Source: Escherichia coli (GTDB taxonomy: Bacteria; Pseudomonadota; Gammaproteobacteria; Enterobacterales; Enterobacteriaceae). Taken from it: 64,000 nt of DNA. Within the stretch, counting starts at the first letter, position 1, and each line of letters begins with the position of its first letter. Of this stretch, positions 38,669 to 40,633 are shown in pieces. Where the stretch lies: NCBI RefSeq assembly GCF_013122565.1, contig NZ_CP053258.1; one strand, written 5' to 3'. The notes below the pieces were generated by a model, which worked only from the letters and a program-made list of their open reading frames with translations, was not told the origin of the DNA and ran no database searches. A program made the position numbers and the translations under genes.

Positions 38669-40633
38669 GTGAGCATGGATATAAGCGATTTTTATCAGAC
38701 ATTTTTTGATGAAGCGGACGAACTGTTGGCTGATATGGAGCAGCATCTGCTGGTTTTGCAGCCGGAAGCGCCAGATGCCGAACAATTGAATGCCATCTTT
38801 CGGGCTGCCCACTCGATCAAAGGAGGGGCAGGAACTTTTGGCTTCAGCGTTTTGCAGGAAACCACGCATCTGATGGAAAACCTGCTCGATGAAGCCAGAC
38901 GAGGTGAGATGCAACTCAACACCGACATTATCAATCTGTTTTTGGAAACGAAGGACATCATGCAAGAACAGCTCGACGCTTATAAACAGTCGCAAGAGCC
39001 GGATGCCGCCAGCTTCGATTATATCTGCCAGGCCTTGCGTCAACTGGCATTAGAAGCGAAAGGCGAAACGCCATCCGCAGTGACCCGATTAAGTGTGGTT
39101 GCCAAAAGCGAACCGCAAGATGAGCAGAATCGCAGTCAGTCGCCGCGACGAATTATCCTTTCGCGCCTGAAGGCCGGGGAAGTCGACCTGCTGGAAGAAG
39201 AACTGGGGCATCTGACAACGTTAACTGACGTGGTGAAAGGGGCGGATTCTCTCTCGGCAATATTACCGGGCGACATTGCCGAAGATGACATCACAGCGGT
39301 ACTTTGTTTTGTGATTGAAGCCGATCAGATTACCTTTGAAACAGTAGAAGTCTCGCCCAAAATAGCCACCCCACCAGTGCTTAAACTGGCAGCCGAACAA
39401 GCGCCAACCGGTCGCGTGGAGCGGGAAAAAACGACGCGCAGCAGTGAATCCACCAGCATCCGTGTAGCGGTAGAAAAGGTTGATCAATTAATTAACCTCG
39501 TCGGCGAGCTGGTCATCACCCAGTCCATGCTTGCCCAGCGTTCCAGCGAACTGGACCCGGTTAATCATGGTGATTTGATTACCAGCATGGGGCAGTTACA
39601 ACGTAATGCCCGTGATTTGCAGGAATCAGTGATGTCGATTCGCATGATGCCGATGGAATATGTCTTTAGTCGCTATCCCCGGCTGGTGCGTGATCTGGCG
39701 GGAAAACTCGGCAAGCAGGTAGAACTGACGCTGGTGGGCAGTTCTACTGAACTCGACAAGAGCCTGATAGAACGCATTATCGACCCGCTGACCCACCTGG
39801 TACGCAATAGCCTCGATCACGGTATTGAACTGCCAGAAAAACGGCTCGCCGCAGGTAAAAACAGCGTAGGAAATTTAATTCTTTCTGCCGAACATCAGGG
39901 CGGCAACATTTGCATTGAAGTGACCGACGATGGGGCGGGGCTAAACCGTGAGCGAATTCTGGCAAAAGCGGCCTCGCAAGGTTTGACCGTCAGCGAAAAC
40001 ATGAGCGACGACGAAGTTGCAATGCTGATATTTGCACCTGGCTTCTCCACGGCGGAGCAGGTCACCGACGTCTCCGGGCGCGGCGTCGGCATGGACGTCG
40101 TTAAACGTAATATCCAGGAGATGGGCGGTCATGTCGAAATCCAGTCGAAGCAGGGTACTGGCACTACGATCCGCATTTTACTGCCGCTGACGCTGGCCAT
40201 CCTCGACGGCATGTCCGTACGCGTTGCGGATGAAGTTTTCATTCTGCCGCTGAATGCTGTTATGGAATCACTGCAACCCCGTGAAGCCGATCTGCATCCA
40301 CTGGCCGGCGGCGAGCGCGTGCTGGAAGTGCGGGGTGAATATCTGCCCATCGTCGAACTGTGGAAAGTGTTCAACGTCGCGGGCGCGAAAACCGAAGCCA
40401 CCCAGGGAATTGTGGTGATCTTACAAAGTGGCGGTCGCCGCTACGCCTTGCTGGTGGATCAATTAATTGGTCAGCACCAGGTTGTGGTTAAAAACCTTGA
40501 AAGTAACTATCGCAAAGTCCCCGGCATTTCTGCTGCGACCATTCTTGGCGACGGCAGCGTGGCACTGATTGTTGATGTCTCCGCCTTGCAGGCGATAAAC
40601 CGCGAACAACGTATGGCGAACACCGCCGCCTGA
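38669..40633 (+). CDS. cheA: Chemotaxis histidine kinase CheA (CheA-L; internal start for CheA-S at 38960)
   Basis: ORF 38615..40633 trimmed to GTG at 38669 (..[24 protein letters not shown]...), 654 aa; phospho-accepting His in [12 protein letters not shown]; in-frame ATG at 38960 corresponds to Met98. Confidence 0.92.

Follow-up and report, generated by a model that had tools for sequence, protein, structure and literature searches.

The short form of the chemotaxis protein CheA, CheA-S, and its start at Met98 have been known since 1980–1991. Co-expression of the long form, CheA-L, with CheA-S is said to extend across the Enterobacteriaceae and to have been described by McNamara and Wolfe in 1997 (J Bacteriol 179:1813). 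In Escherichia coli K-12 the short form is annotated in the curated reference, and it is this site that provides the closest described system for the locus discussed here. CheA-S begins at Met-98 and does not contain the first 97 residues of the protein (PMC7750401). It has been described as "initiated at codon ATG-98" and is no longer made in the CheA-M98L mutant; CheA-S is not essential for chemotaxis, and the M98L mutant has a functional CheA-L (PMC7696710). An endogenous internal ribosome-binding site drives the synthesis of CheA-S independently of the first ribosome-binding site (PMC2716512), and in E. coli the sequences GAGGTGA and GAAGGA have been assigned as the ribosome-binding sites of the long and the short form, respectively (PMC8745638). 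CheA-S recruits CheZ to the cell poles through Leu123 and Leu126 (PMC7750401), and the CheZ-F98S substitution abolishes the localisation of CheZ and its interaction with CheA-S (PMC7696710; PMC7750401).

Other in-frame tandem starts of E. coli are those of infB, from which the alpha, beta and gamma isoforms of IF2 are made (PMC11005335; PMC12350097). Similarly to cheA, one mRNA and one reading frame give rise to two N-termini by independent internal initiation, and the short form is devoid of an N-terminal domain. The gene and its function are, however, unrelated to cheA, and the analogy is one of mechanism only.

The window, i.e., the whole stretch of 64,000 nucleotides of E. coli DNA analysed here, contains the long form of cheA at 38669–40633 (+ strand). 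It starts with GTG and its translation is uninterrupted, giving CheA-L of 654 amino acids plus stop, in which a Pfam scan recognised the domains Hpt (residues 8–100), CheY-binding (161–223), H-kinase_dim (261–324), HATPase_c (372–508) and CheW (514–640). The long-form start, start(L), is preceded by the Shine-Dalgarno sequence GAGGTGA (38658–38664, +), which overlaps the motB stop codon and forms a duplex of −7.2 kcal/mol. The genes are arranged in the order flhDC-motAB-cheAW-tar-tap-cheRBYZ-flhBAE, as is typical of this region in E. coli, and on the basis of identity, the five Pfam domains and gene order this gene is the cheA orthologue of a motA-motB-cheA-cheW operon. This intact operon has its FliA-type promoter inside flhC (36646–36691, +), with the K-12-equivalent transcription start at 36691, and there is no difference from the K-12 promoter in the 50 nt that extend to just beyond the annotated 5' end of motR/motA.

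The short-form start, start(S), is the ATG of codon 98 at 38960–38962 (+). It lies in frame 291 nt (38960 − 38669), or 97 codons, after the GTG. The preliminary description had placed an ATG at 38960, 97 codons into cheA, and had equated it with Met98; both the coordinates and the frame bear this out. It had also taken this codon for the known start of CheA-S, in agreement with the second K-12 RefSeq CDS, which begins there, and with the literature (PMC7750401; PMC7696710). The cheA short form occupies 38960–40633 (+) and encodes 557 amino acids plus stop, sharing its frame and C-terminus with CheA-L. As had likewise been claimed, the region of the phospho-accepting His48 is left out of this product: the His48 codon, CAC at 38810–38812 (+), is located upstream of ATG98 and belongs to CheA-L only. 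The Pfam Hpt match is lost from the short product, while the CheY-binding, dimerisation, ATPase and CheW-like domains (P2–P5) are retained. The check for a ribosome-binding sequence upstream of 38960, which the same description had advised, was positive; GAAGGA at 38950–38955 (+) is separated from the ATG by a spacer of 4 nt, CATC, and is the sequence assigned in the literature (PMC8745638).

We therefore read ATG 38960 as start(S), a second independent translation initiation site that lies within the cheA frame of the motA-motB-cheA-cheW transcript and yields CheA-S, and put the probability of this reading at approximately 0.9. Ribosomes would bind GAAGGA and the adjoining stretch upstream of the ATG, which is rich in A/U and weakly structured, and initiate at codon 98. 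The resulting CheA-S would be deprived of most of P1/Hpt, so that, His48 being absent, CheA-S itself could not be phosphorylated. The exposed surface that includes Leu123 and Leu126 would then recruit the phosphatase CheZ to the receptor arrays. Both the initiation at codon 98 and the role of CheA-S in this scheme are taken from the literature. In the window the codons of the two reported CheZ-binding residues of CheA-S, Leu123 (TTG, 39035–39037) and Leu126 (CTG, 39044–39046), are found within 39035–39046 (+). The gene of the partner, cheZ (46956–47600, +), is intact and encodes 214 amino acids, with the aromatic residues Trp97-Phe98 in the apical loop.

The window is collinear with K-12 MG1655, gap-free and 98.5% identical, and within cheA 27 of the 1965 nucleotides differ (98.6% nucleotide identity), along with four amino acids (S154N, S233A, N259S and K484E). 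The context of ATG98 from −40 to +30 is 100% identical to that of K-12. Gene, operon position, codon 98, the arrangement GAAGGA-CATC-ATG and the 557-aa product without Hpt are all shared; at start(S) itself there is no difference, and those that exist are elsewhere (the 27 nucleotides, the four residues and an IS1 element). Given this sequence identity and the intact operon, the strain probably expresses both CheA forms, as the preliminary description had proposed.

In the curated RefSeq record of K-12, cheA is represented by two CDSs, 1973360..1975324 and 1973360..1975033, with starts separated by 291 nt. For other E. coli genomes, automatic (PGAP-style) annotation gives one cheA CDS only. 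The short isoform is thus routinely missed in automatic E. coli annotation, which lends the recognition of this start some practical value.

Within the species, the 70-mer covering start(S) (38921–38990) is identical in 5365 of the 5378 complete E. coli genomes (99.8%), versus 3339/5363 (62%) and 3173/5378 (59%) for two control cheA 70-mers chosen where the window equals K-12. This uniformity is not confined to the start(S) region: E. coli strains differ unusually little over the entire sequence encoding P1. From cheA nucleotide ~80 to ~440 (38749–39108 in the window) there are zero differences from K-12 or strain OkiPb01697. The K-12 differences at cheA nucleotides 66 and 79 are the only two in the first ~440 nt, and the remainder of the gene beyond ~440 nt holds 20–27 differences (K-12 and OkiPb01697).

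For a wider comparison, 80 Enterobacterales cheA loci, ranging from Escherichia to Xenorhabdus, were kept from a scan of species-representative genomes (n = 81 with the window). The loci were searched for with six seed peptides that were degenerate at synonymous sites. Codon 98 is ATG in 81/81 of these genes, a count to be read with the bias of one seed, ETKDIMQE, towards loci keeping Met98 at the amino acid level; loci with ETKDIMQD and EAKDIMQQ, recovered via other seeds, also keep the ATG. Salmonella cheA DNA is not among the 80 loci, and the Salmonella P1 protein (PDB 1I5N) keeps Met98. The presence of ATG98 in all the genes examined here is the likeness to the co-expression of CheA-L and CheA-S reported for the Enterobacteriaceae.

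The conservation extends to the nucleotide level. As the measure of synonymous diversity, codon diversity was calculated for those columns in which the amino acid is conserved, with normalisation for each amino acid. Among the 81 sequences, every one of the lowest windows of cheA lies on codons 84–101, which delineate the start(S) translation-initiation region (38918–38971, +; core codons 88–99, 38930–38965). The windows of codons 88–97, 89–98 and 88–99 rank first or second among ~350 windows. In a permutation test 0 of 2000 permutations gave any 10-codon window as low as that of the start(S) region, and all other 20-codon bins were within 0.09 of zero. Purifying selection thus acts here on the nucleotide sequence.

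In addition, 143 distant CheA representatives with an N-terminal P1 hit spanning residue 98 were compared. Their P1 identity to the window is 61% or less, except for one protein (P0040; 84%), which keeps the Met. The phospho-accepting His is kept in 142/143 of these P1 domains. Residue 98 is Leu in 93 of them, Val in 19, Ile in 15 and Met in 9. Since this residue is mostly Leu in distant CheA proteins, Met is kept as a start codon and not as a structural requirement, and the prevalence of Leu agrees with the functional CheA-L of the published M98L mutant (PMC7696710). The comparisons indicate that Met98 is not needed by the protein itself and that enteric bacteria retain it for its role as a start codon, i.e., that the site is selected as a start rather than as a mere Met. 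With a gene-wide synonymous minimum at a Met that is Leu outside the clade, start(S) can serve as a clean positive control when internal starts are sought by the suppression of synonymous variation.

Besides a partial 426-aa hit that keeps Met98, the nearest cheA among the matches listed belongs to the metagenome-assembled genome GCA_035281745.1 (protein P0001; locus L083, 1735–1815). At 59% identity, it shares the gene order motA-motB-cheA-cheW with the window. In its protein segment ETKDMLDDQ (DNA AAGGACATGCTG) position 97 is occupied by Met and position 98 by Leu. The gene lacks the frozen synonymous pattern, having TTC CTG in place of TTT TTG.

The AAGGA core depends on Lys95 being AAG and Asp96 being GAC (38951–38959 in the window). 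Lys95 is AAG in only 5/81 genes, namely those of the window, a divergent Escherichia lineage (L002), Cedecea neteri, Izhakiella and an Erwinia metagenome-assembled genome. The other 76/81 read AAA GAT ATT ATG, where pairing with the anti-Shine-Dalgarno sequence reaches −3.3 kcal/mol at most; in this respect the window differs from most of the genes for which the reported co-expression would hold. As AAGGA is absent from 76/81 genes, the Shine-Dalgarno site cannot be the element conserved throughout the order, and with AAG in so few of them the site of the window is an Escherichia-type variant. The sequence frozen across the order is AAC CTG TTT TTG GAA ACn AAA GAT ATT ATG CAG GAA CAG, in which n, the third base of the Thr94 codon (−10), varies freely.

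A tentative explanation, to which we give somewhat less than even odds, is that the conserved element at start(S) might be this A/U-rich block of ~35 nt instead of a Shine-Dalgarno sequence, and that AAGGA could have been acquired secondarily in Escherichia through the changes AAA>AAG and GAT>GAC. If so, initiation of CheA-S would ancestrally be Shine-Dalgarno-independent, proceeding via S1 or a standby site and possibly via a hairpin displaying the AUG, and the CheA-S:CheA-L ratio would be tuned differently in Escherichia.

The region of start(S) has a GC content of 40.5% versus 53% for cheA. The predicted probability of being unpaired (−20 to +10) puts ATG98 at the 96th percentile of cheA positions, and its context is predicted to be the most accessible of all in-frame cheA ATGs.

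Conservation near codon 98 could alternatively reflect RNA structure, either a 9-bp stem or another RNA-level signal (an sRNA or an RNase site), and not a linear ribosome-binding sequence; the ATG would still be the start, its use being set by the structure. In the stem, CUGUUUUUG (38936–38944) pairs with CAAGAACAG (38963–38971), leaving GAAGGA and AUG98 in a loop of 18 nt. It is present in both the minimum free energy and the centroid fold of 38890–39030. Its pairing is possible in 96.1% of the cells over the 81 sequences, compared to 41–65% in slid registers, but the stem was read off the window sequence and the slide control is therefore biased in its favour. Moreover, compensatory changes are absent and column-shuffled controls pair equally well (96.0%; 232/500 reach the observed value). 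RNAalifold gave no consensus structure, and the 141-nt stretch 38890–39030 folds no better than shuffled sequences (z = +1.08, i.e., worse). Without covariation, with shuffles performing equally and with no RNAalifold consensus, the hairpin was set aside as the explanation and is kept as a minor rival only; we regard an RNA-structural origin of the conservation as unlikely.

Another alternative is that ATG 38960 is an ordinary internal Met codon, with GAAGGA arising incidentally from the Lys-Asp codons, and that the strain makes no short isoform. Taken alone, the motif would not contradict this. The duplex of GAAGGA with the 3' end of 16S rRNA amounts to −5.4 kcal/mol versus −7.2 kcal/mol at the main start, and, for E. 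coli, a spacer of 4 nt is rather short. Of the internal in-frame ATGs in the 43 long open reading frames of the window, 21/395 (5.3%) are preceded, between −18 and −4, by a Shine-Dalgarno-like site just as strong. With that proportion of ATGs equally equipped, the motif alone proves nothing, and the case for start(S) rises above chance through the comparative evidence, i.e., the identity to K-12, the ATG in 81/81 genes and the suppression of synonymous variation. Against the ordinary-Met explanation, the region is identical to the site of K-12 where initiation has been shown genetically, the synonymous sites around ATG98 are the most constrained in the gene, and Leu, Val or Ile, which occupy position 98 in most distant CheA proteins, never do so in the 81 Enterobacterales. 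Taken together these make the explanation very improbable.

Two other ATGs of cheA, Met81 and Met485, have Shine-Dalgarno-like sites, both with a poorer geometry. That the short form would start at another in-frame codon such as Met81 (ATG 38909) has in its favour the preceding GAGGTGA (38901–38907), with a duplex of −7.2 kcal/mol that is stronger than that of Met98, and the retention of Met81 in 77/81 sequences. The heptamer is the same as the Shine-Dalgarno sequence of start(L). Nevertheless, codons 79–80, which form this site, vary freely at synonymous positions (diversity 0.59 and 0.50), so the Shine-Dalgarno sequence of Met81 is probably due to chance. The spacing is 4 nt from GAGG to the ATG and 1 nt from the full GAGGTGA, and the predicted accessibility is lower (74th percentile). 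The M98L substitution alone removes CheA-S (PMC7696710), and the K-12 annotation puts the short start at codon 98. Met81 was rejected on its spacing and the absence of synonymous constraint, and a start other than codon 98 is the least probable of the alternatives considered here. Met485 was rejected as well, as its Shine-Dalgarno-like site abuts the ATG and synonymous constraint is again absent.

An internal promoter producing a shorter transcript was dismissed as unnecessary, no sigma-70-like site having been found on the + strand from 38669 to 38960 (on this strand the closest matches, at 39336 and 39753, lie further downstream). The antisense open reading frames 38695–38961 (−) and 38627–39043 (−) are considered mechanical; the minus-strand ATG needs the Escherichia-specific ATC at codon 97, which is ATT in 74/81 relatives.

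Some further features of the gene and its surroundings were recorded. The main start of cheA reads GTG-AGC-ATG in 75/81 genes (38669–38677 in the window). The Photorhabdus and Xenorhabdus loci (L076–L081) have GTA-ACx-ATG at this position, so that translation of their cheA must start from the ATG corresponding to E. coli codon 3. The alignment to K-12 breaks only at the IS1 site upstream of flhD, the 768-bp IS1 element located upstream of flhDC in K-12 MG1655 being absent from the window (~35490–35500). When the segment 30000–54000 was compared with 5,426 complete E. coli genomes, the best match reached 98.5% identity over 24 kb and 98.8% over cheA, and with a best match of only 98.5% the source lineage has no close relative among those genomes. 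Downstream of cheW there is a terminator-like hairpin (41183–41209) that scores on both strands and precedes the tar promoter. The latter is an exact match to the FliA-type promoter consensus, TAAAG-N14-GCCGATAA, at 41244–41270 upstream of tar (0.01 expected by chance). The flagellar and chemotaxis genes of the window (30000–54000) all look intact.
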